Assembly (NCBI GenBank): GCA_963662655.2
Contig: CAXXTU010000002.1
Coordinates: forward strand, 3,552,001 to 3,616,000
Direction of reading: 5' to 3'
Source: Candidatus Cloacimonadales bacterium
Lineage (GTDB): Bacteria > Cloacimonadota > Cloacimonadia > Cloacimonadales > JAIOQZ01
Length of the DNA: 64,000 nt
Part shown: in pieces, positions 4,910-36,321 of the stretch
How the letters are laid out: each line of letters begins with the position of its first letter
How positions within the stretch are numbered: the first letter of the stretch is position 1
The notes under the pieces: model-generated
Told to the model about the DNA's origin: nothing
The model's database searches: none
Seen by the model: only the letters and a program-made list of their open reading frames with translations
Made by a program: the position numbers and the translations under genes

Positions 4910-4911
4910 GA

Positions 4912-13500: not shown

Positions 13501-14026
13501 GCCCGGTTTCATCAAGATCGCCGGCATTGTCAGCGATATCTCGGTGAAAAGCGACCGGCAGGGGAAGCCATATTCCTACATCACGTTCGAGGACCTCTAC
13601 GGCAAGTTCGAAATGGGACTCTTCTCGGACGATTACGTGCAGTTCCATCACATGCTCGAGATGGGCAAGGAGTTCCTGATCATCGGGCGGAAACGGAACG
13701 GAACGAACGGAGACGACTCGAAGCTGAGAATTTACCCCAAGAGAATTATTCCTTTGCAAAAACTGCCGCAAGAGGCTGGTGAATTGGAAATAGCGCTCAA
13801 ACAGGAAGGTGCCGGGCCGGACTTGGCAAAAATATTACTTGAACAAAATCGAAAGAATCCCGGAAATGTAAAGTTACGCTTTCGCGTATCGACAAAACGT
13901 TTCAAGGAGCTGATTTTAATCCCGGATACGCTGAGTTTATACCCTGGTGGAGAGTTTATGAAAACAGTTGAGCCGTTCCTGGCCAGAAAGCCTTTTGTGG
14001 TTCTCGATTGTGAGAAGAATCGGTAG
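10574..14026 (+). CDS. dnaE: DNA polymerase III alpha subunit
   Basis: PHP domain (HLHNHTQYSMLDG, TDHGNMFG), GPGRGSAAGS, MPDIDIDF, YAFNKSH, C-terminal OB fold; 1150 aa. Confidence 0.98.
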   Translation: MAFVHLHNHTQYSMLDGACRTDKIVDLAKQYNMPAVAMTDHGNMFGTIDFFNKAKRAGIKPIIGMEAYIVNGELENPATKNDLRHHLVLLVQNTAGYNNLMKLTSKSYTDGFYYKPRISKSLLKKHSEGLVCLSACLHGEIPHLLLDGKKEEALEVIQWYKEVFPERFYIELMDHGLEDERKVKGRLIEIARETDTPMVVTNDCHYLQKEDAEAHDVLLCIQTGKSLGDPNRMRYETTQLYFKNEEEMRKLFPDVPDAYENTVKIAETIDFELPYKNFLFPKIDIPEQYKDSYEYFRALVYEGTKTRYPEMTDEVKERIEFEIDVIHRMGYIDYFLIVKDFIDAARDRGIPVGPGRGSAAGSIVAYLLDITQLDPLEYGLLFERFLDLKRVGMPDIDIDFCAEGRGEVINYVVEKYGRNAVTQIVTFTTLGAKSVIKDVARVLDIPAAEANQITKKMPGGPKSTIDSSLRDSSEFSELMDSREDYRQILKYSKVLEGLVRQIGVHAAGVVIGPGDLSDYVPLAVSSQKDGPSALLVQYEGKWLDDLKLLKMDFLGLKTLTIIRRTLELIKTYKGVDVDIENVDLDDRAAYELLSRGQTDGIFQFESAGMKKYLQELKPNVFADLVAMVALYRPGPMQFIDTFINRKHGREKVAYDHPLAEEILKETYGVTVYQEQVMQIAKVMAGFSSADAGVLRKAISKKKRDMMEELHIKFREGCVQKGVKAQVADKIWNDWEGFADYAFNKSHSACYAFIAFQTAWLKSHYPVEFMTAILSVEDDPSKIPYFLDECRNMEIKVIPPDINKSIEAFSVEDDKILFGLRGIKNVGSAAINAIVSERQKGGEFKSIFEFCTRVDTMAVNRSVIESLICAGAMDCLEGKRSQKCAVIEDALNHGNIVQQERNSAQISLFDVMSDTMKAEEHEPQLPEIEKDWALNYKLEQEKKYLGFYISGHPLMQHKPILELYTNINTKTYATKDMPGFIKIAGIVSDISVKSDRQGKPYSYITFEDLYGKFEMGLFSDDYVQFHHMLEMGKEFLIIGRKRNGTNGDDSKLRIYPKRIIPLQKLPQEAGELEIALKQEGAGPDLAKILLEQNRKNPGNVKLRFRVSTKRFKELILIPDTLSLYPGGEFMKTVEPFLARKPFVVLDCEKNR

Positions 14027-15152
14027 AAACGCATTCTCATGGGTATTGCTTGTTGCAATATTGCAGGCGATTTCATCGCTGGGCGCATTTACGATTCAGC
14101 ATGAGAAGGTTGGGGAGACCAGCTTCTTCACGCTTTTCATCCCATTCGAAAGCCTCCACTTCCAGTTGCAGGATTCAATATATGTCAGCAAGACGGAAGT
14201 AACGCTGAACCTCGTGAACGAGGCGGAGAAGAATTTCTACCACGAGCTTTCGACCTTTGAAATCACTTCGGACGATCTGAACCGGATACACTCGCGATCC
14301 CTCCAAATGCACTTTTCCACCAAGGCGATATCGGGGAACATCTCAGCCTTCCTCAAGGTAAAAAATGTGCTGCAAGGGACCCTCCAGCAGGAATTATTCA
14401 CATTCGAGCCGCCGTACGAGAACCGCATGCAGACTTCGCCGCTCATCTTGTTCCGCAAGAGCGGATACGAGTTTGTCACGCAGTTTCCGTTCGACGGAGC
14501 CCTGGCGGATTCCGTGTCCATCACGCAGCATTTCAATCTCCCGCCGGATAGTTTGCAGGTAGTCGTGAACGACCGTGTCTTATGGAAATGGGATACTCCG
14601 GGGCCGAATCTCGATGTGACGCTTCCCATGGAGAATTGCGTCTATCATGGGATCAACGTCCGGACGTTCTTCGGCAATCGGACGATCAGCGTCGATGAGC
14701 AACGGCCTTATTCATCGCCATACGAAGAGCGATATCCGCCGAAGATTCAGATACGGCAAATGGAGATCATCATGCTGAGCGCCGATATTCAGCAGGCGCG
14801 GATGATCAGGAAGGGAGAGCTTGCGGAATACATCGAACAATACTGGAAGCGAAACGACCCCACTCCGGAAACCGAGTACAACGAGAATCGCGAGTATTTC
14901 ATTCATCGTGTCATGGAAGCCGACAGGCGTTTCGGTCTGAAAGGCTTCATGGACGGCTGGAGAACGGATCAAGGGAAAATATTGATTAAATATGGCGAAC
15001 CGGAAGAGGTGTACAAGGAGAGCTTCCCGATAGGGACATATCCGTACATCATCTGGTATTATTACTCGATTGATAAGCAATTTATTTTCTACGACAAGAA
15101 AGGGTTTGGGTATTATGAGCTTGAAGAAAAATGGTACATTGACCGCTACTAA
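14010..15152 (+). CDS. GWxTD domain-containing exported protein
   Basis: Likely GTG start at 14010 overlapping the dnaE end; signal-like stretch; YWKRNDPTPETEYNE...GWRTDQGKILIKYGEP. Confidence 0.85.
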   Translation: MRRIGRNAFSWVLLVAILQAISSLGAFTIQHEKVGETSFFTLFIPFESLHFQLQDSIYVSKTEVTLNLVNEAEKNFYHELSTFEITSDDLNRIHSRSLQMHFSTKAISGNISAFLKVKNVLQGTLQQELFTFEPPYENRMQTSPLILFRKSGYEFVTQFPFDGALADSVSITQHFNLPPDSLQVVVNDRVLWKWDTPGPNLDVTLPMENCVYHGINVRTFFGNRTISVDEQRPYSSPYEERYPPKIQIRQMEIIMLSADIQQARMIRKGELAEYIEQYWKRNDPTPETEYNENREYFIHRVMEADRRFGLKGFMDGWRTDQGKILIKYGEPEEVYKESFPIGTYPYIIWYYYSIDKQFIFYDKKGFGYYELEEKWYIDRY

Positions 15153-16482
15153 GACCATCCTGTTGCTGGTAGCGCTTTTCACGGTTATAACCGCATCAGC
15201 CGAAGAACTGAATTTTTACGCGAAAACAACACGCTTCCTCGCTGCCGAAGGAAACACCTCGTTTGAGATTGTGTACAAAGTTCCCTACAAAGAGCTGGCG
15301 TTCGAGCAGAAAGAGGATCGCTTCGAGGCGAACTTGCGGGTCGCGATTGTCATCGAGCAAGGCGAAAAGAGATCGGTGGTGAAACAGTTCGATAATCCGA
15401 TCATCACGTTAGATCAGCAGAAGACAGTTTCGAACACAGAGTTCTACATGGATAAAATCTCCCTCACGCTCAGCAAGGGGATGATGATGGAGCTTGATTT
15501 CATCGATACGAATTCCCTGAACGAGGGCATATATCGCAAGGATCTGGTGTTGCTTACGCCGGATGAGGTTCTGAGCGACATCGAGATATGCACGAACGTT
15601 TTCATCGATACGACAAGGCGCTATGTGAAATTCAGCCGTGGCGACACGCTTTATATATCGTCCCCGGATCGAGTATTCAACTTGCAGAACAATAAAAAGC
15701 TCTATATGAATTACCAGGTCATCAATCTGGAGCAAACCGGGCAGGGATCCGCCCAATACGAAGAGATCATGACGATCACCAAGGGTGATGTGATCGTATC
15801 GCAAACAAACGATTCGGGATATCTGGATCGCAAAAACAAGTTCATGCTGAAGACGTTTGATTTAACGAATTATCAATCGGGTAAATACAATGTCCAGCTC
15901 ACGTTGAAGGATGTCCAATCGGGTAAAGAGACCATGCGTGAAGGTATGTTCATCGTCAGGGCTGGCGAAAAGACAAGATATCGTATGTTCACGGATATCA
16001 ACGACGATCTTCAGCTGGTCAAGACCTTTCTCCCGATCAAGGAGCAGAATGTTCTGGAAACCCTGAGTGAAGATGCGATAGACAACTATATCGATCACTT
16101 CTGGCGCGTGAACGATATCGATCCCAGTACGGAGAAAAACGAGTTTTTCGAGTTGATCCAGGAGCGAGTGAATCATGTGAATGGCAAGTTCTCGAGATTC
16201 GATAATGGCTGGAAAACAGATCAGGGACGCATTTACCTCCGCTACGGCGAACCGGCCGAGATCACGTCCGACTTCACGGATCCTTCACAAACACGTTTCG
16301 CGACGAAAGAGTATCAGATATGGAAATACGAAACGCCCGAACGGCGGGTCTACTTATTCATCGACAACATGATGAATGGCAATTTCCAGCTCGTGTATGT
16401 TACCAACGACGACAAAGAGCAAACGCTCCCGAGTTGGCAGCGTTATTTCGGGGACGATTTCGACGAATCAGCCCTCCAATAA
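15115..16482 (+). CDS. GWxTD domain-containing exported protein (second paralog)
   Basis: Signal peptide; FWRVNDIDPSTEKNE...GWKTDQGRIYLRYGEP; start approximate (15115). Confidence 0.87.
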   Translation: MSLKKNGTLTATKTILLLVALFTVITASAEELNFYAKTTRFLAAEGNTSFEIVYKVPYKELAFEQKEDRFEANLRVAIVIEQGEKRSVVKQFDNPIITLDQQKTVSNTEFYMDKISLTLSKGMMMELDFIDTNSLNEGIYRKDLVLLTPDEVLSDIEICTNVFIDTTRRYVKFSRGDTLYISSPDRVFNLQNNKKLYMNYQVINLEQTGQGSAQYEEIMTITKGDVIVSQTNDSGYLDRKNKFMLKTFDLTNYQSGKYNVQLTLKDVQSGKETMREGMFIVRAGEKTRYRMFTDINDDLQLVKTFLPIKEQNVLETLSEDAIDNYIDHFWRVNDIDPSTEKNEFFELIQERVNHVNGKFSRFDNGWKTDQGRIYLRYGEPAEITSDFTDPSQTRFATKEYQIWKYETPERRVYLFIDNMMNGNFQLVYVTNDDKEQTLPSWQRYFGDDFDESALQ

Positions 16483-16979: not shown

Positions 16980-18023
16980 ATGAAAGCAAGAAATCTGTTT
17001 TTCTTGACTGTGTTGGTTTTAATTTTTGCCGGCAGCTTAAATGCTGTGCCTTTTACATGCCTCGGCTATATGAAGGTGCCAACTGGCTACGTACTCCCTC
17101 ATCTGATGGGAGAGGTGTCTGTTGTTGGTTACTCGGGGCCGGGTGTTCAAGAGATCGATACCTACATCGGAAGTGACGGCACGGAGAAACTCGTCGATTC
17201 AGATGATATCGATAACCAGATAACCTATGCAGCTGTTGTGAATTTCGGGTTCTACGATCGAGTTGATTTAGGGCTTGTATACAATGGCGTTGGCCTTTTC
17301 TATGCCAACATGAAGGCTCAGATTGTTTTTGAATCTGAAACAATGCCTGCAATCGCGGTCGGTTTGGATAACATGTTCTCAGAGTATAAAGACAGTTACC
17401 GCGACAGCGATGCCGAGGGTCGTGACAAGACTGTCGAGTACAATTTTGCCGACAGAGACGACTATACTGCGTGGTCACCCTACATCGTGCTTTCCAAGGC
17501 AACGGTTTTACGCGGTCTTGCCTTTTTTGAACAACTCGAAACCGTGGTGACTGTCGGCTGGGGCCAGAACCGCTTCGAAGGAAACCGGCACATATCCAAG
17601 AGACTCGGCGGTTTGTTTGGGGCGATTGAGTTCAAGCCGTTACCTTATATGTCTGTGGTAGGCGAGATGGATGGTTACAACTTCAACGCTGCCGTGAATT
17701 TCTTCTATACCAATTACGAAGCCCGTTTGGGTCTGTATCGTGTCGAGGAGATGGGAAGAGACGGTCGCGAAGACCCCAAGATCGCTTTGAATCTCAAATA
17801 CACCTTCGACTCCATATCCGAAGTCAAGGCTGCAGGAAAAACCAAGCGTTACAGCCCCACAGCGGAAGTTGTTCCTGAACGTCGTGGAACGCGTGTCCTC
17901 AGAAAGAGCACCGAAAGTACGACTGATAACCCGCTTCTTGAAGAATTGGAAGCAATCAGAGCAAAACGTCGCCAAGCGGAGAAAGAACTGGAAGAAATCA
18001 GAAAAGTACTTGAAGAAGAGTAA
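16980..18023 (+). CDS. Putative outer-membrane beta-barrel (YjbH-like) with C-terminal coiled coil
   Basis: AGGAGG SD; signal peptide; G-x-M-x-VPTG start, PAIAVG, amphipathic strands, LFGAIE; tail LLEELEAIRAKRRQAEKELEEIRKVLEEE. Confidence 0.65.
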   Translation: MKARNLFFLTVLVLIFAGSLNAVPFTCLGYMKVPTGYVLPHLMGEVSVVGYSGPGVQEIDTYIGSDGTEKLVDSDDIDNQITYAAVVNFGFYDRVDLGLVYNGVGLFYANMKAQIVFESETMPAIAVGLDNMFSEYKDSYRDSDAEGRDKTVEYNFADRDDYTAWSPYIVLSKATVLRGLAFFEQLETVVTVGWGQNRFEGNRHISKRLGGLFGAIEFKPLPYMSVVGEMDGYNFNAAVNFFYTNYEARLGLYRVEEMGRDGREDPKIALNLKYTFDSISEVKAAGKTKRYSPTAEVVPERRGTRVLRKSTESTTDNPLLEELEAIRAKRRQAEKELEEIRKVLEEE

Positions 18024-18025
18024 TT

Positions 18026-20053
18026 ATGAAAAAACGAATACTCCCGGTAGGGATACTTCTTGCATTGCTTTTATGCATGATTCCTCTGAGTGCTCAGTAT
18101 GAAGAAGAGGAAGTGCCGGTAGAGGTTCTCATTCAGGAAGAGCAAGATGCCCTGGATGACCTGTACAACGAAATAGGTCATCTTCGGGAGCTTGCGTTAC
18201 AAAAGAAAGCTCTCCTCAAGCTGGACAACGCTGGTGATAAGAGTGGGTTGCGCTCTTCCTTCGTGAAGGACAGGCAGTCATTGACGACCTTCCTGGATGA
18301 AGGTGATTACGCTGCCGCTCTTAATGCTTACATTGATCTTACATTGGTTTATCAGGGATTCGTTTCCCTGGAAGACCAGATGCTCTACTACGAGGGAGCG
18401 ATCTATTACGGGTATGGACGCAAGGTGAAGGCTCAACAGCTGTTCGAGCGACTCATAGGGAAATATCCGGATTCGATTTACTTCTCCGATGCCGTCAGGT
18501 ATCTCGAAGATATTTATATTCATGCGGGAATGGACGAGGAATTTCTTGCAATCGCGCAAAGAAACCCGAACCAGAACGATCCCCAGCATGTTTACTGGAT
18601 GGGGCAGGCCAACTATAATCTTGGAAACCTCGAAGAGGCCGAGAATATTTTTACCGGCTTGGGAAACGACGCGGATTACGGTTTTCGTAGTAGCTGCATG
18701 CTCAGCATGATCGGTTATTTCAGCTATGGTCTCGATTATGGCATCGAGAGCTTCCTGAATCTTGTTGTCGATTACCCTTCCGATGCACCGTATTTCTACT
18801 TCGTGTATCTGTCTCTTGCGAGACTGTATCAGGAACGTCAGGATTACGATAAGGCATTGTATTGCTACAATCAGTATCTGGCAATGTCCGATGCTCCGAT
18901 TGACGACGAATTCCGCTACGAACTCGTTGTAATGCTTCTCAAGATGGGGGATTTTAATCAGGCGAATGTCTATCTGAAAGAAATCATCGATAACCCCACC
19001 TCGTCAGCCTATTTCACGTCTGCAAGTTATCTTCTTGCAATCGTGAATATGGAGACGGGTGATCTCGATGGCGCTCGCGATAACATCAATGAAGCGCTCG
19101 CTACGACATCTCAAATTCTCGAGGCAATCAATCTCAAGAATGAACTGATGCAAAGACACGAATCTTTGATTCGCCAGTACGATCAGGCGATTTCGCTTGA
19201 AATGAAGAATAATCTCCTCAATCAGATACGAGGTATCGACGAGCAGATTATTGCCACGAGCAAAGCGCTGGAAACCCTCGGGACAGGCCTGACGGAAGAA
19301 GATTATATCCGTCTTCAGATATACGAAGAGGAACTCGCGTACTACAGCGAAACATTTGATAAAGTCAACTTGTTGACTCAAGTTGCCAATACAAAACCAA
19401 ACAAGAAGATACCCAAGCGAATCGACCAAAAGCTCGAAATCCTGGATGAATATGCGGTTCGAATCAACACACTGCAGCTTTTATCTAACCTCCAAGAGCT
19501 GAATCCGGGAGAATACGAGATGGCTTACGTGATATCGAGCGAGATGTACATTTCCCAGAAGACACTGGAGAAGTGGGAAGCCGTCAAGCTTGACGCACAG
19601 CGGAAAGGAAAGACGGAACTGGTTGGGAAGGCGGATCAGGCGATCAGACTTTTACAGGAAAACATCAGCTCCCTTTCAACGGTATCCATGTATACATTTG
19701 GTGAGCTTCGCACCAGCTCCGACATGCAACAGGAATTGGCCAGCGAAGTGGAAAATATCGAGAATTTGAGAAAAGAATTCGCATCGATTCGTCAACGCAC
19801 GGTTGATGAATACAACAAAAAACTCGCGAATCGGTTGAAACGCCTGGATGACCTTCTGGTGGAAGAAAACCTGGCAATGAAGGACCGCTATAACAAGTTC
19901 CTTTCGAAGCTTGAAAACACGGTGGAAGACACATCCGCGAAATACCGGTATACGCTTGTCGATATCCTTTACCGGGAATCGATGCTACTTGATCAGGAGT
20001 ATCAATCAAGACAAGCCGAGTATAAACAAAGTCTGAATAATTCTGGGGAATAA
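18026..20053 (+). CDS. Exported tetratricopeptide-repeat/coiled-coil protein (GltC-like position)
   Basis: Signal peptide; TPR helices (YWMGQANYNLGNLEEAENIF; YLSLARLYQERQDYDKALYCY); helical C-terminal half. Confidence 0.8.
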   Translation: MKKRILPVGILLALLLCMIPLSAQYEEEEVPVEVLIQEEQDALDDLYNEIGHLRELALQKKALLKLDNAGDKSGLRSSFVKDRQSLTTFLDEGDYAAALNAYIDLTLVYQGFVSLEDQMLYYEGAIYYGYGRKVKAQQLFERLIGKYPDSIYFSDAVRYLEDIYIHAGMDEEFLAIAQRNPNQNDPQHVYWMGQANYNLGNLEEAENIFTGLGNDADYGFRSSCMLSMIGYFSYGLDYGIESFLNLVVDYPSDAPYFYFVYLSLARLYQERQDYDKALYCYNQYLAMSDAPIDDEFRYELVVMLLKMGDFNQANVYLKEIIDNPTSSAYFTSASYLLAIVNMETGDLDGARDNINEALATTSQILEAINLKNELMQRHESLIRQYDQAISLEMKNNLLNQIRGIDEQIIATSKALETLGTGLTEEDYIRLQIYEEELAYYSETFDKVNLLTQVANTKPNKKIPKRIDQKLEILDEYAVRINTLQLLSNLQELNPGEYEMAYVISSEMYISQKTLEKWEAVKLDAQRKGKTELVGKADQAIRLLQENISSLSTVSMYTFGELRTSSDMQQELASEVENIENLRKEFASIRQRTVDEYNKKLANRLKRLDDLLVEENLAMKDRYNKFLSKLENTVEDTSAKYRYTLVDILYRESMLLDQEYQSRQAEYKQSLNNSGE

Positions 20054-20057
20054 CTAC

Positions 20058-23000
20058 ATGAGAACCATGAAACCACGCGTTATATGGATGTTGGGTCTCC
20101 TTTTCATTTTTACGGTATCCTCTTTATGGAGTGTGTCGCTGGATGAACTGGAAAGGGAACACCAGAAGTTGCAGGAATCAAAACGGGAAGTTTATAATCT
20201 AATCCAGAAAGATATACGGGATAATCCGAATTCACCCGATGTGCCTTTCTTGTATTTCAAGCTGGCGCAATTGAGTTCGGAGCTCGAAAGTATCGATGAT
20301 CCTGGGAAGACTGCTGGATTTTACAAAAAAGTCTTGGAACTTGATCCAACATTCCCAGATAAAGACGTGGTACTGTACAATCTCGCGTATTTCTCTTACG
20401 AAGCCGCAAGAATGGCAAGGGATGAAAAGAGAGAGCGGAACATCGACCAGGCAATGAACTGGCCGGACAGCTATCGCTTGTCGGAAGATCAGCCGTTGGT
20501 GAAAACCGCTATCGATTCCTACACGGAAATCTATATCAAGTATCTCAATTCTCCCTACAACTCGGAAGCCTTGTTCAGGCTTGGCAACATTTACTACGAT
20601 CTCGGATTCGATGCAAGAAGAGGCGAGAAGTACTACACCGTAGCTTCTAAATTCTTCGATATCCTCGCGAGAAGAGAAGGCGATCCTTACCAGAATTTCG
20701 GTATATTCTATCGCGGTTGGGTGAACTTCACGAAGGGCGATTATCAGAATGCGATCGATGACTTCTCTCTGATACTGCACGCTATCGAAAATGGCGGCGC
20801 GATCGAATTTAAAACATATTTCGAAAGCGAAGCGATCGAAAACATTGCATACAGCTTGATAGAAGCCGACAGTACTAACTTCGAACAACGCTCTCGCGCC
20901 GCTCAGTTCGCGCGCGATTCATTTATAGAGCTTGTGAACGAAAACACCGGTAAGAAGATTCTGCGGGAAGCAATCGATCTCAAGTTGCAACTCAACGCTC
21001 CCATGCAGGCTGTCGACCTCTACAAGGCGTACGTGAATCTCTATGGAAAGAGCCTGGAAGCTCCTTCGTACATCGATTCCGTTATGACGATTTATAAAAG
21101 AAATCCGAACCGCCTTCGCGACGAGGATATCCGCCAGGCGATTACACGCGAGAATGAATACCTTGTGACCAATTACAAGTATGCTTCCGACTGGTACATT
21201 GCCAATGAGGCGAATCCCAGTTTCATGGCGCAACTTCGCGTTATTCGTGACGCATACAAGTTCCTCGCGCCGGAATATCTCATTGCGTTCCAGAATAGCA
21301 ATAGCGAATCGGATTTCAACCTGTACCAGGATTTGTTCGAGAATTACCGGAAATTCCCGCAGTTCGCCCAAATGGATACGGATGAGGGGGAAGGCGATTG
21401 GTTCTTCGAATACGAGCTTAGCTCCGCCGCAGGTTACCTTACACTCGCGGATCAATCGGATGATCCCGGCAAGTATCTCCTCGCACACGACAAGCTCACG
21501 GAGATCAATACAAAATTCCCGGAAAACGATCGATACATCGCGAACGAAACAAACGCGTTCTATTGCATCGAGCGGATTTACCAGATTCTGAATCCGACGG
21601 TTGCGGACAATCCGTATATCAATCCGGTGGATAGCCTCGTGATTGACAAAGCGGCTCTGGACTCGATCTATATCGCCGGCTCGGTGCGCTATGAGAGCAC
21701 GCTGACCTCGGAAGAATACCAGTCGGCGCAAAAAGCGGAAGACCTGAAAAAGATTATCTACCGTCGCGCGGAACTGCGTTTTGAGAACGAGGACCTCGAC
21801 CTTGCTTACCAGGACTACGAGAAGCTACTCAATCTGCAAATCACCGACGAACTCCGCAAGGTCGCTTTCAGCCGCCTGGCGAGCATCAACGAGCAGCGTG
21901 GCGATTATACGATGGCGATTGATTTCTACAATCAGGCCGCGAACTTCGCCGGAACGGCGGAGGAACGCGCAGCCATCAAGACGAACATCGCTGCCGCTTA
22001 TCAGTCGGACGCGGAGCAGCTCCGCGATACCGGCAATTTCCAGCAGGCCGCCGAGAAATACATCCGGCTTTCGGATGAGATTGCCTTCAAGGATTCGGCG
22101 CAGTCTGTCGCATTCCGCGTGAAAGCGATTGAAATGTACAACAAGATTCCTCAGTACGATATGAGCATCGCGCTCCTGAAAGAGATTGCGAGCTCGCAGA
22201 AGAACATCGATCAGGTGCTGGGATATTACGTAAAGGCCTGGAACATCGCCGATACGCTCATGATGAATCCTTCGCTCGGCGAACAGCTCCGCTGGGAATT
22301 CGTGGATATGTATCCACGTAGCAACCAGGCGTACAATATCCAGCTCGATATCATCAAGCGTTACGAGGACGATCCCGCAACGAAGGCCGCCGCCGCTCAA
22401 ATGTACCTCGATCTTCACGCCAAGGCCGGCAATATCGACCTCGGCGAAGACAAGATCGAAGACTTGATGCTCAAAGCAATTTCAATAGAAAGAGGGCTTG
22501 GAAACGAAGCGAAGCTGATTGACCTGATGCTTGCCTTCGAGAAGCAATATCCCAAACATTCAGCTGCGAACGAATTTCTTATAGAGGTCGCCAAGAAGTA
22601 CAAAGCGATGGGCGATCAAGCTCAATACAAAGAACTCGCTCGTTACATCAATAAGAAGGATCCGTCGATCGCACTTCTCGAATCAATCGCCAGCGAAGAA
22701 TTGAAAGAGCTCTTCACGAATGTGAACACATTGTTCGAAGCGAAGGCGTACGATTCAATGCGTGAAAAGATACTCCAATATAAGGAAGTCGAGAATACCT
22801 ACAAGAAGGAAGGCCTCGACCTCCACATCGCTTCGGTCTACGAAACGTTCGACTACATCGAGAACTTCATCTCCTGGGAGAGCAGTTATAACGACATGGT
22901 CGCGGAGCTTGATGCATATCTCGAGAAATCCCCCAACGACCTCTTGCTGGTGGGAGAGCCTACCAAGTGGAAAACCAAGGTTGTTCCACGTATGAAAACC

Positions 23001-24359
23001 CTTGTTAAAAACTGCGATAATGAGTACAACAAGGTGCTTGATGTGATCGCTACCGGTAAGGAATACGGAATATCCGATCCGCAGACCACGAAGATCCTTT
23101 ACCTCGCCGCTCAGGTTTACGATTACAGTCTGGAAGCCTTGATCGAACAGGTGAAAAAATACCAGGAAATAACAAGCGAAGCTCAACAGTATCGTGACGC
23201 CGGTCCTTCCGTGTATCAGCAGTTTACGAGTGCGATTGCTGCCGCCACGAACGAGGATCGCGCAACGTTGAAGAAGAAATCGCTTCAGCTCTATAATACG
23301 ATCGTTGTCAACTTCACCGATAAGACCGGTTACACGGATGAATACACCGAAAAAGCGATGGATAAACTCATCGAGTTCGGTATCCGTAAACCGAAAGAAT
23401 ACCAGGATATCGTCATGGATGGTTCCTGGAACATCAAGCTGACACCTGTCGTTCCGGATTCGATGATCTCGGATCAGTGGACAAATCTTTCTGCCTCTAA
23501 GACAGCGACTTCAGACGAACTCGGGATGATCGAGCTTGTTGAAATCGCTCCGATGGCGGACGCTCAAATCAAGAGCTCGATGAACGCCGAGATCGCGCCG
23601 GAGCTGCTGACGGTTGACTACTTCAGCAATCAGCCGGTGCAGGTCTTCGTCAACGAAGTTCTCGTCGATAAGGCTGCGACAGCGGTTGATACACTCGTTG
23701 TCGATGGATATGATGTGCCGCATTATTCACTGGTGACAAGCCAGTCGCTCGTCCAGGGAATGAATACGGTCGGGTTCCAGGTTGCTCACGGCGATTCACT
23801 CGACACAACGCTCTTCTCCGCGAGATACCAGGCTCAGTATGACCAGGGCGATCTCGAGTTCTACCGCACGACCGAGGAGATTTCGATCGATACGGATTAC
23901 TCGTGGTACACATCTCGTAATGCGGATATCGATCCTGCGACCACGGCTCCGGACTCGACATGGAAACTCGCCGCAAAAGGCAATTTCAGCTTCTACCGTG
24001 TTCAGATCCAGGAGATGCAGGATGTAAACGCGATAGAAATCTGGGCACCCGCGATTGACACAACGGGTACTTCGACTGTATATTTTATCAAGAACTTCGA
24101 TATCGATACCGAGGTTCTCGACGGAACGATGTCGTTTATAGCGGAAAAAACCGGTTCCGTGTGGATCAATGGCGTGAATATCTTCGATTCGATGGAGATC
24201 ATGATCGACCAGCAGGTGAGTCAGGTTCTGCCGTACATGATGCCTCTCGATGCATCGTATTTCGTCCAGGGGCGCAACACGATCCTCGTCAAGGTTGATG
24301 GCGGCGAAAAATATAAGGGTTTACTGTTTAACCTGAATATGTATGTCAGGAAACCGTAA
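20058..24359 (+). CDS. Very large exported TPR protein with C-terminal beta-sandwich domains (GltD-like position)
   Basis: Signal peptide; many TPRs (EALFRLGNIYYDLG; FYRGWVNFTKGDYQNAIDDF); final ~300 aa beta-rich (YFIKNFDI...VWING...GRNTILVKV). Confidence 0.8.
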   Translation: MRTMKPRVIWMLGLLFIFTVSSLWSVSLDELEREHQKLQESKREVYNLIQKDIRDNPNSPDVPFLYFKLAQLSSELESIDDPGKTAGFYKKVLELDPTFPDKDVVLYNLAYFSYEAARMARDEKRERNIDQAMNWPDSYRLSEDQPLVKTAIDSYTEIYIKYLNSPYNSEALFRLGNIYYDLGFDARRGEKYYTVASKFFDILARREGDPYQNFGIFYRGWVNFTKGDYQNAIDDFSLILHAIENGGAIEFKTYFESEAIENIAYSLIEADSTNFEQRSRAAQFARDSFIELVNENTGKKILREAIDLKLQLNAPMQAVDLYKAYVNLYGKSLEAPSYIDSVMTIYKRNPNRLRDEDIRQAITRENEYLVTNYKYASDWYIANEANPSFMAQLRVIRDAYKFLAPEYLIAFQNSNSESDFNLYQDLFENYRKFPQFAQMDTDEGEGDWFFEYELSSAAGYLTLADQSDDPGKYLLAHDKLTEINTKFPENDRYIANETNAFYCIERIYQILNPTVADNPYINPVDSLVIDKAALDSIYIAGSVRYESTLTSEEYQSAQKAEDLKKIIYRRAELRFENEDLDLAYQDYEKLLNLQITDELRKVAFSRLASINEQRGDYTMAIDFYNQAANFAGTAEERAAIKTNIAAAYQSDAEQLRDTGNFQQAAEKYIRLSDEIAFKDSAQSVAFRVKAIEMYNKIPQYDMSIALLKEIASSQKNIDQVLGYYVKAWNIADTLMMNPSLGEQLRWEFVDMYPRSNQAYNIQLDIIKRYEDDPATKAAAAQMYLDLHAKAGNIDLGEDKIEDLMLKAISIERGLGNEAKLIDLMLAFEKQYPKHSAANEFLIEVAKKYKAMGDQAQYKELARYINKKDPSIALLESIASEELKELFTNVNTLFEAKAYDSMREKILQYKEVENTYKKEGLDLHIASVYETFDYIENFISWESSYNDMVAELDAYLEKSPNDLLLVGEPTKWKTKVVPRMKTLVKNCDNEYNKVLDVIATGKEYGISDPQTTKILYLAAQVYDYSLEALIEQVKKYQEITSEAQQYRDAGPSVYQQFTSAIAAATNEDRATLKKKSLQLYNTIVVNFTDKTGYTDEYTEKAMDKLIEFGIRKPKEYQDIVMDGSWNIKLTPVVPDSMISDQWTNLSASKTATSDELGMIELVEIAPMADAQIKSSMNAEIAPELLTVDYFSNQPVQVFVNEVLVDKAATAVDTLVVDGYDVPHYSLVTSQSLVQGMNTVGFQVAHGDSLDTTLFSARYQAQYDQGDLEFYRTTEEISIDTDYSWYTSRNADIDPATTAPDSTWKLAAKGNFSFYRVQIQEMQDVNAIEIWAPAIDTTGTSTVYFIKNFDIDTEVLDGTMSFIAEKTGSVWINGVNIFDSMEIMIDQQVSQVLPYMMPLDASYFVQGRNTILVKVDGGEKYKGLLFNLNMYVRKP

Positions 24360-24375
24360 GGTAAAGAGGTCCATT

Positions 24376-24696
24376 ATGAAGAAACTTCTCATTGTAGCGC
24401 TGTTACTGGCTGGCCTGAGCTTGTTCGCCCAGCAGGCCGAAGAGAATGAGAATCAGCCGGAGGTTCAGGTTCAGGAGCAGACACAAACGCAAACGCAAGC
24501 TGGAACGACTCAGGATCTCAGAGCCCGTTTCCAGAATATCGAAGTGTACAGAGATACAGAAGAAAGCCAGATTCAGGTCGACGATCTGAAGCCAGGTCAA
24601 TCAACATTGAAAGAGCGCCAGGCATCCAAGTGGAATGCTGGAGCCAAGCGCGTTTACCTTGAAAGATTTCAGAAGTCTAATAAGTTATTATATTGA
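24376..24696 (+). CDS. Small secreted protein (GltF-like position)
   Basis: GAGG SD; MKKLLIVALLLAGLSLFA signal peptide; Gln/Glu/Thr-rich linker, then FQNIEVYRDTEESQIQV. Confidence 0.75.
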   Translation: MKKLLIVALLLAGLSLFAQQAEENENQPEVQVQEQTQTQTQAGTTQDLRARFQNIEVYRDTEESQIQVDDLKPGQSTLKERQASKWNAGAKRVYLERFQKSNKLLY

Positions 24697-24713
24697 TAAA
24701 CAGGAGGTTTAGA

Positions 24714-25472
24714 ATGTCTTCGTTCTTAAGGAAAATATGCTTCATAGGAGTGCTGTTTGTTTTAACAGTAAGTCTGGCAGCACAGGATGCAGCGGTACGT
24801 GGTGGAGAAGGTATCGACTTTGGAAAGATGTTTTCTGGTACACCGGGTATGTTCATGTACCTTATCGTGTTACTGGGTGTCGTTAGTCTTGTTCTCGCAA
24901 TCGTAAAACTTTTCCGTCTTGGAATCAAAGAGAAATTCGATGCACAGGGTTTCTATCTGAAACTGAAAGGTTACATCAAAAACGAACAGTACGATGAAGC
25001 AATCAAAGTCTGTAAGAATTTCAAGAACAAAACAATGGGCTTCATTTTCTGGAACGGCCTGGTATCGTTCAACGACGCTCGCAAGATCGGCAGGAAAGGT
25101 ATGGACCTTCGTCAGATTCTTCAGAACTCGTTCGATGAAGCCAGTATGCAGAAGATACCCGAAGTTACCGCAGGACTGCACTGGTTCGATCTGATCGCGC
25201 AGGTCGCGACGCTTCTCGGACTTCTCGGTACGATCTTCGGTCTTATCTTCGCGTTCAACGCGTTGGCAAACGCACCGGAAGCCGACCGTACGCGTCTTCT
25301 GACCGAAGGTATCGGAACCGCTATGGGAACAACGGGTCTTGGTCTGATCGTCGCGATCCCAACTCTTCTTATCAAGGGTTATCTGCAAGGTCGTGCAGAA
25401 CGCATTACCGACCAGATCGACGAATTCAGCGTAAAAACTATCAACCAGATCAATTACACAATAAAGGATTAG
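24714..25472 (+). CDS. MotA/TolQ/ExbB proton-channel protein (AglR-like)
   Basis: AGGAGG SD; ATLLGLLGTIFGLI and GIGTAMGTTGLGLIVAIP TM motifs. Confidence 0.95.
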   Translation: MSSFLRKICFIGVLFVLTVSLAAQDAAVRGGEGIDFGKMFSGTPGMFMYLIVLLGVVSLVLAIVKLFRLGIKEKFDAQGFYLKLKGYIKNEQYDEAIKVCKNFKNKTMGFIFWNGLVSFNDARKIGRKGMDLRQILQNSFDEASMQKIPEVTAGLHWFDLIAQVATLLGLLGTIFGLIFAFNALANAPEADRTRLLTEGIGTAMGTTGLGLIVAIPTLLIKGYLQGRAERITDQIDEFSVKTINQINYTIKD

Positions 25473-25476
25473 TGCC

Positions 25477-26001
25477 ATGGCATATCGTCCATCGGAATCA
25501 CGTAAAGGTGGTAACTGGGAAACCAAGGATTTGAACCTGATTCCTATCATGAATCTGTTCATCGTGGTTATCCCAATGCTTCTCACCATTATCGTGATGA
25601 CGCAAATGGCGATGATCGAAATCTCTCTGCCGACGCAAGCTGGAGCAGGGGATAATCAGAATGGGGAAGATGCAGCGGACAAACCGCAGGCTAAGCTCCT
25701 GGTGATTACTCCTGAAGGATTTGAGATTTTTACCCCTGGTGGTGAAGATGAGGATGGTATTCAGCTACCTATACTCAATCCAGAAGCTACAGAAGCTATT
25801 CAGATGTACGATTTCTATCGGCTCGATCAGGAAATCGCCAAAATCAGAGAAGATAATGAATCACTCGAAGCCATCGGCATTATGCCCGATCCACGTGTTA
25901 CGTTCGAAACGCTTCTCATGACCATCGACGTTGCCAAGAGCAATGGATTTGAAGTGGATTACAAGAAGTTCGAGCGTACAGGCTTACGCAGGGTTCAATA
26001 G
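25477..26001 (+). CDS. ExbD/TolR family protein with Asn at the channel-Asp position
   Basis: DLNLIPIMNLFIVVIPMLL TM; periplasmic IMPDPRVTFETLLMTIDVAK motif. Confidence 0.9.
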   Translation: MAYRPSESRKGGNWETKDLNLIPIMNLFIVVIPMLLTIIVMTQMAMIEISLPTQAGAGDNQNGEDAADKPQAKLLVITPEGFEIFTPGGEDEDGIQLPILNPEATEAIQMYDFYRLDQEIAKIREDNESLEAIGIMPDPRVTFETLLMTIDVAKSNGFEVDYKKFERTGLRRVQ

Positions 26002-26010
26002 GAGTTCCCA

Positions 26011-26598
26011 ATGGCGAAGAGAATATCTTACACCAAGGTGAAAAGGTCGGTACACGGAACGACCGGTCGCGAGGCAAAGAAGAAACATCCGAAGACAAAA
26101 GAGATCAACATTACATCTCTGATCGATATTCTTACGATCCTTCTGGTGTTCCTTATCAAGAACGTCTCGATGGAAGCGCAGAAGACGCAGGAACCGGAAG
26201 GAATGAAGTTACCGTCAACGGCAACCAAACAGGAACTCATCAAAAATGGTAACACCGTGATTATCAAAGTGTATCAGGATCAGATTCTTTTCGGAACATC
26301 CAGCACAAAGGTTATTCCCGATGACAAGAAAGCTGGTTTTGAAGGCCGCGAGCTGGAAGTCTATATGACGGATCAGGCAACACGAGAAGCGATGCTGGGT
26401 CTTCTTCAGGCACAGGCTGCTCAGATAAAAGGAGCAAATGCCGAGGCGATACCCGCAATTTTGATACAAGCGGACAACAATGTACAGTGCCGCTATATCA
26501 CGGACATGATCATTTTGTGTGCAAATTCGGAATTTACGCATATTTACTTTTCAAGTATGCATGATACGCAGATCAAGGAGCGTTTCATAAAATCCTAA
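26011..26598 (+). CDS. ExbD/TolR family protein (channel Asp intact)
   Basis: EINITSLIDILTILLVFLIK TM; ILIQADNNV motif. Confidence 0.92.
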   Translation: MAKRISYTKVKRSVHGTTGREAKKKHPKTKEINITSLIDILTILLVFLIKNVSMEAQKTQEPEGMKLPSTATKQELIKNGNTVIIKVYQDQILFGTSSTKVIPDDKKAGFEGRELEVYMTDQATREAMLGLLQAQAAQIKGANAEAIPAILIQADNNVQCRYITDMIILCANSEFTHIYFSSMHDTQIKERFIKS

Positions 26599-26617
26599 TT
26601 TCCCAGGAGTAGTCTGT

Positions 26618-28084
26618 ATGGGCAATAAATTATTAAATTTGAAGTTACTTTATAAAGGGAAACAAGTAAACTTCGCTTACCAGAGAACGGAAGGAAGTCC
26701 GAAGGTATGGGAATTCAAGAATTCCTTCATCCTTGGGTCCGATCCGCACCTTTTCTGGCAAATACTGGATGATCGTTTCCCGAAGAAGTTTTCGTTGATC
26801 TCCAAGAAGGGGGATAATTTCATCCTGCATCTCACAAAAGGTATGAATTTGTCCGTCATGCGAGGCGACGACAACTTGACAATGGACGACCTGAAGCAAC
26901 AGCGACTGCTCAATGGAAATAGTGTGACACTCGATGAAAGGACAAGCGGAACGATCGGCTTGAATCCTGACTATCAGATACAGTACAGTTTCCAGACTCC
27001 GCGTCCGCAGGTGCTGTCTCAGGCCGAAATCGCGATGATTCGCGAGTTCAACAGGAAACCGGCCGCTACTGCCGAAGCAACCTTTACGAAATGGTTCCTG
27101 ATTATCAGTTTGCTGGTGACGCTCATCGGTTTGACCACCTTCAATCTGACATACGAGCCGAAGAAGGTTGAACATTCCATCGTGGATCTGTACCAGCAGC
27201 GTGATCTTGCAACCCAGGTATCATTCGACGTACAGCAGCCCGAAGATGAAGGTGCTGTTACCGATTACGGCATGGGCGACAAGGTCGATAAAGATGCCGG
27301 CGTAACGGAAGAACAGGCGCAGGAGATCGTGCAGGAAGCTCAGGCAAAGACGGTTAGCGACATTGCCGCCACGCTTGGCGAGTTCAACGTATCCGGGGGA
27401 GGAACCGGTAGTCTCGACGAGACCGGTATCGGCCAGGATGCGATTTTTGAAGTGAACCAGGCTGCGGACATCGTGGCTGCGGGTCCTGCAAAAGGCGCTT
27501 CCCGTACAACGTCATCTGCCGCAATCGCTCAGTTCGACACGAAGGGAGCAAAGGCTTCCGAGATCATGAGCGGTGAGGGCGGATTGGACGCAATCCTTGC
27601 TGACGGCAACCTTAACGTTGGCGCTGCCGGCGGTAAATTCGAGGCAGTCGACCTCGATGCCGTAGGCGCGTCGGGCGGCCAGATCACCCGTGTAACGATT
27701 ACCGGCTCAGCCCAGTTCGAAAGCATCAAGGCTGCTCGCTACAGCGGCTTGAGAACTGTTCGGGCACAGGACATCGAGACATCGGATATGTCGGCTTCGG
27801 ATAAGAACGTATACGTGAATATCCGCAACTATGTGAGAGCTTTCGAGCCTCAGATCACACAGGCGTTCCGTCGTGAGTCGGCGATCGTCGAGATGTACGG
27901 TTCGCTTGAAATCATCCTCTACATCAACGAGCAGGGTATGGTCGAAGGCGCAGACCTCGCGAAAGTTGGAGATAGTTTCTTCACGGACGATTTCCTTCAG
28001 AAAGCGCATACGATTATCACGAAGTGGAAATTCCCTGTTAAGAGTCGCTTGAAATACCAATGGCGTATGAACTTCATGAAATAG
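26618..28084 (+). CDS. Single-pass membrane protein with TonB-C-like C-terminal domain (GltG/PglI/AgmX-like)
   Basis: Cytoplasmic beta-rich N-domain (possibly a degenerate FHA); one TM (WFLIISLLVTLIGL); Gly/Ala-rich linker; C-terminus IRNYVRAFEPQITQAF...GSLEIILYINEQGMV...WKFP. Confidence 0.72.
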   Translation: MGNKLLNLKLLYKGKQVNFAYQRTEGSPKVWEFKNSFILGSDPHLFWQILDDRFPKKFSLISKKGDNFILHLTKGMNLSVMRGDDNLTMDDLKQQRLLNGNSVTLDERTSGTIGLNPDYQIQYSFQTPRPQVLSQAEIAMIREFNRKPAATAEATFTKWFLIISLLVTLIGLTTFNLTYEPKKVEHSIVDLYQQRDLATQVSFDVQQPEDEGAVTDYGMGDKVDKDAGVTEEQAQEIVQEAQAKTVSDIAATLGEFNVSGGGTGSLDETGIGQDAIFEVNQAADIVAAGPAKGASRTTSSAAIAQFDTKGAKASEIMSGEGGLDAILADGNLNVGAAGGKFEAVDLDAVGASGGQITRVTITGSAQFESIKAARYSGLRTVRAQDIETSDMSASDKNVYVNIRNYVRAFEPQITQAFRRESAIVEMYGSLEIILYINEQGMVEGADLAKVGDSFFTDDFLQKAHTIITKWKFPVKSRLKYQWRMNFMK

Positions 28085-28102
28085 TAAGCCATTCAATACA
28101 TG

Positions 28103-28131
28103 AAAGCCCCTGGAAACAGGGGCTTTTTTTT
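28103..28131 (+). terminator. Rho-independent terminator of the TPR-ExbBD operon
   Basis: AAAGCCCCTG-GAAA-CAGGGGCTTT followed by a T run. Confidence 0.92.
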
Positions 28132-30748: not shown

Positions 30749-31417
30749 TTAGAACTTGAAGGACGCCGTTAGAACCGGCGTCATGTCGTTCTCCATGTGG
30801 ACGCCCATTTCAAGCCTTCTATTGGCCTTGCGAGCGCTGATCATGGAGTTGAAGCCGCTCACGAGGTGATTCAGGACAATCGCTCCCACCATCGCTTGCG
30901 CATAGTCCTTGTTGCGCTGGATATCCTTGTAGTAGCTGGAGTACTGACTTCTCCTCTCGCGAGAATCCCAGTTCCATTTCTCGTTTTCTGTATATGCGTG
31001 TTCTTCTATATAGGTTGTACGAGCTTCGGGATCATCCGGATACCTGTTGATTGCAGTGCGACGAACGGCTTCGTTGTAGCCTCCGGCCTCGTAGCCCCAG
31101 CTATCGTATTTGGAAAGGTCCTGCTGGTACTTTCCGTCGAAGTTCCCAGGCTGGATACCGGCATACTTCATGGCGTATTCGTAGGCGTGGCGCTCGCTGA
31201 TGTCCGATTCCTCCTGAAAGTAGAACATGGAGCTCCACAAGAGCACTTCCGACACGATAAACGCATAACCAACGCTGTTTCCCTGCGAGAGCTCGCCATA
31301 CCCCGGTACAACGAGCGATTTCAGGAACATGAGTCCCGGGCTATGCTGCGCGAACGCGCTCATGAAAATCATCATGAGCACGAATAGAAGGACGATTTTT
31401 TTAGAAGTGAATTGCAT
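30749..31417 (-). CDS. Exported membrane protein, paralog 3 (DUF5683-like SxxxPGxG motif)
   Basis: Signal peptide; KSLVVPGYGEL; WNWDS; LNHLVSGF; ends VLTASFKF. Confidence 0.75.
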   Translation of the reverse strand: MQFTSKKIVLLFVLMMIFMSAFAQHSPGLMFLKSLVVPGYGELSQGNSVGYAFIVSEVLLWSSMFYFQEESDISERHAYEYAMKYAGIQPGNFDGKYQQDLSKYDSWGYEAGGYNEAVRRTAINRYPDDPEARTTYIEEHAYTENEKWNWDSRERRSQYSSYYKDIQRNKDYAQAMVGAIVLNHLVSGFNSMISARKANRRLEMGVHMENDMTPVLTASFKF

Positions 31418-32075
31418 AATTCAATCGGATCCCATTGTTTTGTAGATCGGGTTCAAAGGAGATATTCTTCAATGCACGATACGCTCGGTTGTGCTTCCGT
31501 GCGCTGGTGGCCGTTGAAATGACCGATACGATACGATTGAGGATTGCGGCTCCCATGGCGAAATTGGAGTAAAGCTCGAAATCCTGCTTTCTGCTGCGGC
31601 GTCTCTTGTACTCGCTCCAGTGGGAGCTGCTCTCCCAACGCCACGCTTCTTCTTCCACGATCAGATAGCTATCGAGATATTCCTGATATGCATCCGGGTC
31701 GTTGTTGTAGATGAGGTAGTAGTTTCTGGCGTCGCGGATCAGGTTGTCGTTGTAATCGTCGCTGCTGTAAAAATTCTGGATGCGCTGGTAGTAGGAATCG
31801 TCCTTTCCCTTGGGAACGCCGGCGTATGCGCTCGCGTAGTCCTGATAAGACTCGATGGCCCAGTCGCGCTCCTGATCCAGCTTGTAGTAAGCAAACCAGA
31901 TCAAAATCTCTGCGCTGATGAATGCCGCGCCTTTTTCATAATTGCCCATGTAGAGGTCGCCGCCGCCGGGAAGAACAGCTGAAAGAGCCATCGCCTTCAG
32001 CGTCGACACTTCCTGCGCGGAGAGTGTAATCAGCACGGTGAGAAACAGGAGAAGGATCAGTGATTTTCGCATCAT
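31401..32075 (-). CDS. Exported membrane protein, paralog 2 (DUF5683-like)
   Basis: True start MMRKSL at 32075 (TAATG overlap); SAVLPGGGDLY; WRWES; LNRIVSVI; ends IRLNYAIHF. Confidence 0.75.
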   Translation of the reverse strand: MMRKSLILLLFLTVLITLSAQEVSTLKAMALSAVLPGGGDLYMGNYEKGAAFISAEILIWFAYYKLDQERDWAIESYQDYASAYAGVPKGKDDSYYQRIQNFYSSDDYNDNLIRDARNYYLIYNNDPDAYQEYLDSYLIVEEEAWRWESSSHWSEYKRRRSRKQDFELYSNFAMGAAILNRIVSVISTATSARKHNRAYRALKNISFEPDLQNNGIRLNYAIHF

Positions 32076-33031
32076 TAGAATTTCCTGCTGAGGATCAACA
32101 TTGGCGTAACATGGTCGTTGCAGAGAATCGGCTGTACGTTGAATTCGTAACGCGGAGCTTTCGAGATGTACTCCACGTTGTAGGATTTTGTTACACGATA
32201 GGCGTCGATGATCGCCACAAGGTGGTTCAGCATGATTCCCCATGTGCAGTAGTCCGCTTTCGTGTAGTAGTCTTCAGCTTCCTGTCGCATATCGATGTAT
32301 TCGTCGCGTAGTGCGGAATCCCTGGATGGATCAGTTTCATCATTATAGTCGGGATTCGTCGGGTAATTCCCGATCCACTTGTGATTCGGATCATCGGCTG
32401 AGGTATCCCACGCCCATGAGTAATTACCCTGGTAACCGTATTTATTATGCCAGTCAGTCCAGCCGAAAACGTATTTGTTGTATTTACCGATATCTTCATA
32501 GAAGTGCTGCGTATTGGTTTCATCGAGCCGGAAATGTGTTTCATCGTAGATGTCTTGCACCTCGGCGTCTTCGCCAATGACATCCATCATATTGTCGCGA
32601 GCTTCATAATACAGCTCTCGATCATAATGCAAGTCGGCGTAATCCTCGTAGGCGTCTTCCTTATCGAGTCCTTCTTTCTGGAAGTGAATATATCCTACCC
32701 AAAGCGCGATCTCGAGAATGGGGAATACATAGCCGGTCCAGGAGCGATAGTTTGCGTAGATCGATCCAGAGCCGGGAATTAACGCGGAACATGCCATTGC
32801 GAGCGCTGCCGATTTCTTCCGGTAGTTTACGACAATGATATCGTCACCGGCAACTTCGTCGATGTCTTCGATTTCCACTTTCGGTCTTTCCTGTTCCTCA
32901 TGTTTAGCCGCTTTTGTATCTTCAAGCTTGATGGTCTCTTCGGTATCCGTGGCGTTGAATTCTTCAACTTCCTGCGCTGCGAGAATGGCGAGCATGCTCA
33001 GAACGAGCAGTACCGACAGTATTTTCTTCAT
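32075..33031 (-). CDS. Exported membrane protein, paralog 1 (DUF5683-like)
   Basis: Signal peptide; SALIPGSGSIY; WAWDT; LNHLVAII; ends MLILSRKF. Confidence 0.75.
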   Translation of the reverse strand: MKKILSVLLVLSMLAILAAQEVEEFNATDTEETIKLEDTKAAKHEEQERPKVEIEDIDEVAGDDIIVVNYRKKSAALAMACSALIPGSGSIYANYRSWTGYVFPILEIALWVGYIHFQKEGLDKEDAYEDYADLHYDRELYYEARDNMMDVIGEDAEVQDIYDETHFRLDETNTQHFYEDIGKYNKYVFGWTDWHNKYGYQGNYSWAWDTSADDPNHKWIGNYPTNPDYNDETDPSRDSALRDEYIDMRQEAEDYYTKADYCTWGIMLNHLVAIIDAYRVTKSYNVEYISKAPRYEFNVQPILCNDHVTPMLILSRKF

Positions 33032-33052
33032 TGATCGCCTCCAGGCAAAGTC

Positions 33053-36313: not shown

Positions 36314-36321
36314 GGGTATCC

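Follow-up and report, generated by a model that had tools for sequence, protein, structure and literature searches.

A core complex of the Agl-Glt machinery outside the myxobacteria was described by Luciano et al. in 2011 (PMC3169522). In that report, gltC, gltD, gltE and gltG are clustered with aglR, aglQ, aglS and one extra gene, and the function of the core is given as unknown. The Geobacter cores encode, in order, proteins of 626–629, 1090–1108 and 240–272 residues, the product of the extra gene, and proteins of 211, 166, 165 and 484–505 residues. The Fibrobacter entry contains no gltE, and Cloacimonadota are not among the organisms in the first two of the three parts of its Table S3. Here we analyse a 64,000-nucleotide stretch of DNA (the window) from a Candidatus Cloacimonadales bacterium, and in particular an eight-gene operon on its plus strand (16980–28131). 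Judged from its sequence, the operon is a gltE-less Cloacimonadota variant of the Agl-Glt core complex; it is termed a variant because the published Fibrobacter copy likewise lists no gltE. The first-pass annotation of this DNA had proposed an undescribed system. That proposal is not supported, because the core has been known since 2011, including a Fibrobacter copy that has almost all of the same parts. The matches listed in literature searches, whose coverage excluded most subscription journals, include no paper about the operon in Cloacimonadota.

Profile comparisons and a tree of ExbB proteins support homology to Agl-Glt individually for gltC, gltD, gltF, aglR, aglQ, aglS and gltG. It rests on NCBIfam models and on Glt-core loci from metagenomes, not on the M. 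xanthus or Fibrobacter proteins themselves. The reference set was gathered from one AglR-type relative and comprises 80 metagenome loci of unstated taxonomy. Where long enough, these loci carry gltC-, gltD- and gltE-like genes, a small gene, aglR, aglQ, aglS and a gltG-like gene. Reference proteins for GltC, GltD and GltG were picked with Cloacimonadota profiles (E < 1e-5 for GltD), so the homology seen with hhalign is partly circular; those for GltF were picked by position and motif.

The AglR-like protein groups with the AglR-like proteins of the Glt-core loci (support 100/98) and lies apart from E. coli TolQ and ExbB and from the other Cloacimonadota ExbBs. The tree is an unrooted split of 24 AglR-like rows versus 9 others, with 9 rows omitted (6 from Cloacimonadota and 3 references), and its AglR-like references come from metagenome loci in which gltC/E/G-like genes lie nearby, not from M. 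xanthus itself. In an ExbB-family profile search, the next-best matches after Cloacimonadota-like proteins are, among named members, from Myxococcales, Deltaproteobacteria and Bacteriovoracaceae; 20 of these proteins were looked up, and three clusters had a taxon finer than "bacterium". As first annotated, no TonB-dependent receptor, tolB or pal is present within the operon, according to the list of open reading frames (ORFs), the Pfam matches and the annotation of the window. An ordinary Tol-Pal or TonB uptake system was rejected on the tree split and these absences.

Two distinct TolR-like genes, aglQ and then aglS, follow aglR, and the Q and S profiles each select the matching position in the Glt-core loci. 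Two ExbD genes alone are not diagnostic of Agl-Glt because the same genome contains a second operon with ExbB, two ExbDs, TonB and a TonB-dependent receptor. Alignment to a solved ExbD places Asn26 of the AglQ-like subunit at the position of the proton-binding Asp. Asn is found there in 21/21 family members and in all 120 listed homologues. At the Asp39 position of the AglS-like subunit, Asp is invariant (21/21). The metagenome Glt-core loci (L073–L152) display a similar pattern. Among 72 proteins, their AglQ position holds Asn (64), Gly (6), Ala (1) or a gap (1), and never Asp, and their AglS position contains Asp in 55/55. Since Asn is common to most of the reference cores, it marks a broad subclade and not decay. 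The M. xanthus motor differs in this respect. D28 of AglQ is essential there, as cells with the D28N mutation are reported to lose gliding and sporulation along with proton conductance (PMC3858216). The Asp is stated to be present in AglQ as well as AglS (PMC9389320). The AglS-like subunit alone can probably carry the proton, as suggested by the retained Asp. Within the coverage given above, no paper on an Asn change in AglQ was found. Neither the AglS-like nor the GltD-like protein gave a match when searched against plasmids.

The GltG-like transducer is predicted to contain an FHA-fold domain (residues 1–130), a membrane helix (152–178), a disordered linker (201–363) and a TonB-C-like domain (393–488). 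M. xanthus GltG, from its central FHA domain onward, has the same layout as described in PMC11761067. NF033768, a model of the AgmX/PglI tail, is matched by 16 of 24 family members. One member matches the gliding_GltG model over residues 9–468 (E 5.5e-24, below the cut-off), and the N-terminal domain scores 99.6% in hhalign against the reference Glt-core loci. For NF033760 the family does not reach the equivalog cut-off, which is what a distant relative should show. Similarity of 26618–28084 to GltG/AgmX, suggested by the first-pass annotation, is thus found.

GltG-type sequences also occur elsewhere. Genome G086 encodes, away from the operon, a second full-length GltG-like protein followed by a vWA/YfbK lipoprotein (L162:8551-11910). 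The host genome encodes a stand-alone probable lipoprotein of 171 residues that consists of a GltG-type TonB-C domain (G000:C2:705075-705590, L068:7076-7591; E 1.5e-23), and similar short matches are present in many relatives.

The GltD-like protein aligns with GltD-position proteins over 909 columns (hhalign 100%, E 3e-42). The GltC and GltE controls score far lower, and the position in the locus agrees. The GltC-like protein aligns with GltC-position proteins over 517 columns, extending to the C terminus (99.0%), versus only 252–262 columns with the GltD and GltE positions. NF033756 was not matched directly by the GltC-like family (17 members). The GltF-like small protein scores 91% (E 1e-6) against 48 GltF-position proteins and 90.6% against a single one. 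It matches no NCBIfam gliding model, and neither do the reference GltF-like proteins. Cross-controls in hhalign yielded short generic TPR stretches only, or less than 2% for the small protein. A gltE gene is missing, as no gene lies between the gltD-like and gltF-like genes in the window and 23 relative loci. The best GltE match in the genome scores 43 bits and is a generic TPR, versus 137 bits for a reference GltE-like protein. Sequence searches of the PDB retrieved TonB, ExbD and generic TPR matches only and no Glt structure.

The eight ORFs form one tight operon, separated by gaps of 2, 4, 16, −4, 4, 9 and 19 bp (Table 1). The −4 gap becomes 17 bp if the AglR-like gene begins at ATG 24714, which is preceded by an AGGAGG site. 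The coordinates, sizes, gaps, Pfam assignments (TPR, TPR, MotA_ExbB, ExbD, ExbD) and terminal hairpin agree with the operon and terminator originally annotated. The hairpin ending at 28131 is absent from the output of the automatic terminator scan.

Table 1. Features of the Agl-Glt-type operon in the window
Feature	Position	Strand	Properties
Outer-membrane beta-barrel gene	16980..18023	+	347 aa, signal peptide, conserved N-terminal segment, C-terminal helix 318-346
GltC-like periplasmic TPR protein	18026..20053	+	675 aa; Pfam TPR
GltD-like TPR protein	20058..24359	+	1433 aa; Pfam TPR; lectin/CBM-like end ~1115-1433
GltF-like small secreted protein	24376..24696	+	106 aa; hhalign
AglR-like ExbB/TolQ proton-channel subunit	24714..25472 (frame open from 24693)	+	PF01618 (MotA_ExbB)
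AglQ-like ExbD/TolR subunit, Asn26 at conserved Asp position	25477..26001	+	PF02472
AglS-like ExbD/TolR subunit, Asp39 retained	26011..26598	+	PF02472
GltG-like transducer	26618..28084	+	488 aa; predicted FHA fold, membrane helix, linker, TonB-C-like domain
Intrinsic-terminator-like hairpin with T tract	28102..28131	+	11 pairs, -19.6 kcal/mol, hairpin ~28102-28127

The host genome is 3.8 Mb in size and 99% complete, and its named relatives at 83–87% identity are Candidatus Cloacimonadales. Upstream of the operon, two tandem GWxTD-domain genes lie behind dnaE (13968–16482). They are conserved at this place and retained where the operon is lost. Further upstream, three genes on the minus strand (3782–6523) are putative capB/capC-type genes of poly-gamma-glutamate synthesis.

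Close orthologues of the AglR-like gene are present in 92 genomes of a phylum sample of 121 (E below 1e-30), and the remaining 29 give generic ExbB matches only. At the same threshold, strong matches to the GltG-like protein and the barrel are found in 92 and 93 of the 121 genomes, respectively. A strong barrel match accompanies the AglR orthologue in 90 of 92 genomes, the other two being fragments. These counts concern related genomes, which are not independent samples, and many of the assemblies are fragmented. Synteny was assessed in 23 loci, of which 20 were hand-picked from the AglR matches to span families and three came from a search for relatives. The order gltD-like, aglR, aglQ, aglS, gltG is kept in 23/23, so chance clustering was rejected. 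The barrel gene comes first in 22 loci, a small same-strand ORF is displayed before aglR in 22, and priA is directly downstream in 16. The first TPR gene is separate and matched in 14 loci, fused to the second as gltC-gltD in 7, and unmatched in 2.

The operon site has been altered in some relatives. In G109 and G053, yraN adjoins priA with nothing in between, and the operon is cleanly absent. In G098 (L157:3684-12231) and G043 (L158:5970-14520), the barrel, gltC, gltD and gltF remain together with a gene for a secreted protein of about 255 residues containing only the C-terminal domain of GltG; the gltC-like gene of G043 looks broken. In G010 (L159:4374-5351), the barrel alone is left before priA. 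In G093 (L160:253-2448), the barrel gene is tandemly duplicated at the head of the operon.

The barrel differs from those of the myxobacterial machines, as first annotated. Its AlphaFold2 model (pLDDT 68.8) contains 12 predicted strands. The closest folds are FapF (Z 13.3, root mean square deviation 4.2, 187 aligned residues) and a COG4313 channel (Z 13.0), with several 12-stranded barrels within about 1–2 Z units. PF06082 is matched weakly by 5 of 23 family members (best E 0.005), and the Atlas YjbH cluster scores 0.94. YjbH is described as two barrels, of which the N-terminal one is FapF-like (bioRxiv 2022.02.11.480155). The protein is therefore assigned to the FapF/COG4313/YjbH-N-terminal type. 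The likeness to YjbH was rejected as proof of polysaccharide export, the protein being a single 347-residue barrel without the C-terminal PgaA-like pore. Membership in TonB-dependent uptake was likewise rejected, as 12 strands are predicted for the barrel instead of the 22 of a receptor with a plug, and the receptor is in another operon. The N-terminal segment of the barrel may form a plug, as suggested by a structural overlap starting at residue 25 and by analogy with the COG4313 channel.

A working model of the machine can be drawn by analogy with the AlphaFold model of the M. xanthus complex presented in PMC11761067. A ring of five AglR-like subunits would enclose a single AglQ-like and a single AglS-like subunit. 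Onto this motor the GltG-like transducer would dock through its FHA fold and its membrane helix; its disordered linker would cross the wall, and its TonB-C domain would grip the GltD-like scaffold. The GltF-like protein would bridge to the GltC-like protein positioned under the barrel. Such a force-transducing chain, from the motor through GltG and GltF/D/C to the barrel, is quite probable.

The cargo is the least certain part of the model. We tentatively propose that the machine is of the Agl-Glt core type, pulls on its own barrel using the proton gradient and moves glycans across or along the outer membrane, with a probability of about 0.42. Given the architecture, a glycan is slightly favoured as substrate, either an imported oligosaccharide or a surface polymer; movement of polymers, the second job suggested by the first-pass annotation, is plausible. 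The glycan reading is based on the end of the GltD-like protein, on data from Fibrobacter and on the precedent of Nfs. Two lectin- or carbohydrate-binding-module (CBM)-like beta-sandwich domains occupy approximately residues 1115–1433 of the GltD-like protein and would hold the glycan. The closest matches to the last domain include a lectin (6t0q, E 8e-5) and a domain of a rhamnosidase (3w5m, E 7e-4). The tail contains an internal repeat (E 4e-4), PF02837 is matched weakly by 3 of 12 members, and one relative matches an alpha-L-rhamnosidase model (E 8e-16). In Fibrobacter, seven proteins of FSU_2396-2403 are reported to increase 1.2–1.7-fold on cellulose. A complex that contains cellulases is reported to include both the GltC homolog and the OmpA-family protein encoded upstream, and a role in the uptake of cellodextrins is proposed there, with no receptor found (PMC6851124). 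The Nfs paralogue is described as moving a spore-coat glycan (PMC3858216).

Several observations weigh against glycan movement by this machine. With E-values from 1e-4 to 1e-3, the lectin-like matches are weak, albeit mutually consistent, and the tail varies, since 2 of 13 aligned proteins are without one of the two domains. The barrel is not the polysaccharide pore, as it matches the FapF-like N-terminal barrel of YjbH/GfcD and not the C-terminal pore. In Fibrobacter the changes are modest, and the protein encoded upstream belongs to a different family. This motor may be unnecessary for the outer module to work, as G098 and G043 keep the barrel, gltC, gltD, gltF and a shortened gltG with no motor genes at the site. 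For the Cloacimonadota copies, the proposal draws on sequences and models. A more specific form of it is unlikely. In this form, the asymmetric 5:1:1 motor with a single proton-binding axle subunit would not be a two-site rotor but a ratchet with one active side, opening the small plugged 12-stranded barrel via GltG-F-D-C and passing glycans to periplasmic lectin domains. If true, the single-site ratchet would energise sugar transport across the outer membrane without a TonB-dependent receptor, which may have been what the gliding motor originally did.

Other jobs for the machine were weighed against glycan movement. It might stand in for Tol-Pal, using the proton-motive force to maintain or reshape the outer membrane (in tethering, lipid balance or division) and carrying no particular cargo. 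The operon is mostly single copy at its fixed site next to priA and is kept in genomes of about 2 Mb, and GltG is compared with TolA in PMC11761067. Pal exceeds its cut-off in none of the 121 genomes, while two control genomes match, and TolB is below the cut-off in the host genome. As canonical Pal was not found in this sample, envelope upkeep stays in contention. However, the 29 genomes without an AglR orthologue lack canonical Pal too, Pal-like matches do not track the operon, and a Tol-Pal-like role would need neither a dedicated barrel nor a lectin-like tail. We consider this role unlikely. A cargo other than glycan, such as peptides, lipids or an outer-membrane protein, could also be transported or assembled through or at the barrel. 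The TonB-C domain of the transducer and the resemblance of the barrel to FapF, a polypeptide transporter, and to the COG4313 channel are in keeping with such cargo, although Z-scores differ little among several 12-stranded barrels, a fold does not reveal function, and an ExbB-ExbD-ExbD-TonB operon linked to a receptor is present elsewhere in the genome. Non-glycan cargo is rather unlikely. Surface motility, the first job suggested by the first-pass annotation, is highly improbable, even though the motor and periplasmic core are the same as in M. xanthus. The core alone is judged unlikely to drive motility by Luciano et al. (PMC3169522). No gltE is present in the operon or convincingly matched in the genome, and no gltA/B/H/I/J/K or adhesin (CglB) gene was recognised in the operon, with no genome-wide search made with each model. 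The Asp in the membrane segment of AglQ, a feature of the full gliding machine, is replaced by Asn26. A weak test for a short MglA-like Ras protein found only four long GTPases. The host has flagellins; across the sample, flagellin occurs in 14/121 genomes and its presence does not track the operon.

The motor might instead replace GldLM and energise type IX secretion through SprA and PorV. The operon lies 8–9 kb from porV (36322–37419); porV and the gene for a C-terminal-domain (CTD) protein (33053–36313) are 5–9 kb downstream on the opposite strand. In the phylum sample, sprA is found in 115 genomes and gldM in none. The host genome contains sprA and porV and at least 150 type IX secretion CTD matches, while gldL, gldN and Pfam GldL/GldM were not found and GldK was matched below the cut-off only; none of the gld searches had a positive control. 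This agrees with the pattern that the first-pass annotation asked to look for, sprA and porV being present and gldL/M/N not found. However, 22 of the 115 sprA genomes have no AglR orthologue, some of them as fragmented assemblies and not counting G101, whose Q, S and G genes sit at a contig end. Two, G109 and G053, lack the operon by the clean absence described above. The motor is thus not generally required for type IX secretion, and the suggested link to the nearby PorV-type system is weakened to an improbable one. Operon-less genomes still have porV-like genes beside probable CTD proteins, sprA lies about 650 kb from the operon, and a porV-family gene accompanies the other ExbB-ExbD-ExbD-TonB operon in 5/5 loci viewed.

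Two observations concern the porV genes themselves. In the window, one run of genes on the minus strand (30749–37419) encodes PorV, an M6-like CTD protein and a set of three secreted proteins that resemble each other, two of them with weak DUF5683 matches. The second motor operon encodes a TonB-dependent receptor, ExbB, two Asp-bearing ExbDs, TonB, a probable CTD protein of about 1010 residues and a porV-family protein (G000:C2, approximately 1855–1864 kb; L070:2778-12403). This conserved operon recurs in L058, L060, L066 and L067, and in G055, G065 and G062 the distance to sprA is about 12 kb. A proton motor may thus be linked in a second way to a type IX secretion system that seemingly lacks GldLM.

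The core lies behind the evolution of myxobacterial gliding, and its function has been open since 2011; the Cloacimonadota copy narrows this question and does not solve it. The copy is dispensable for keeping sprA and has its own barrel, and its lectin-like domains could be expressed and assayed alone. The Asn/Asp asymmetry, which many related cores have in common, raises a question on which 5:2 motor models can be tested.

Several known systems share parts with the operon. The Agl-Glt core complex (Group B) has the same cluster order and size range and homologues of gltC, gltD, gltG, aglR, aglQ and aglS, whereas the Cloacimonadota copy lacks gltE and has a recognisably GltF-like small gene, a leading barrel gene and a lectin-like GltD tail. 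Features seen in this copy are the leading barrel, the lectin-like tail, the gltC-gltD fusion and the Asn in the AglQ-like subunit. The M. xanthus Agl-Glt gliding and Agl-Nfs spore-coat machines have the same AglR/Q/S-type motor, GltG layout, GltC, GltD and GltF. In contrast, GltA/B/H/K, CglB, GltI, GltJ and GltE are not recognised here, and the transducer has one FHA domain instead of two. ExbB-ExbD-TonB and Tol-Pal belong to the same motor superfamily and share the TonB-C fold, but the operon occupies a separate branch of the ExbB tree, adds a large TPR scaffold and an FHA domain, and has no receptor, tolB or pal. The YjbH/GfcD N-terminal barrel, FapF and the COG4313 channels have the same 12-stranded fold as the operon barrel. 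Unlike YjbH/GfcD, the latter is single, without the larger polysaccharide pore, has a C-terminal helix and is encoded with a proton motor. The locus of Fibrobacter succinogenes (Fisuc_1892-1897/FSU_2396-2403), likened here by its published annotation, is likewise from the FCB group and lists no gltE. Its order is alike, with an outer-membrane gene, two TPR proteins, ExbB, two ExbDs and a TonB-family protein. It differs in its upstream protein, annotated as OmpA family and not FapF/YjbH-N, and in its GltG homolog, which has 308 residues versus 488.

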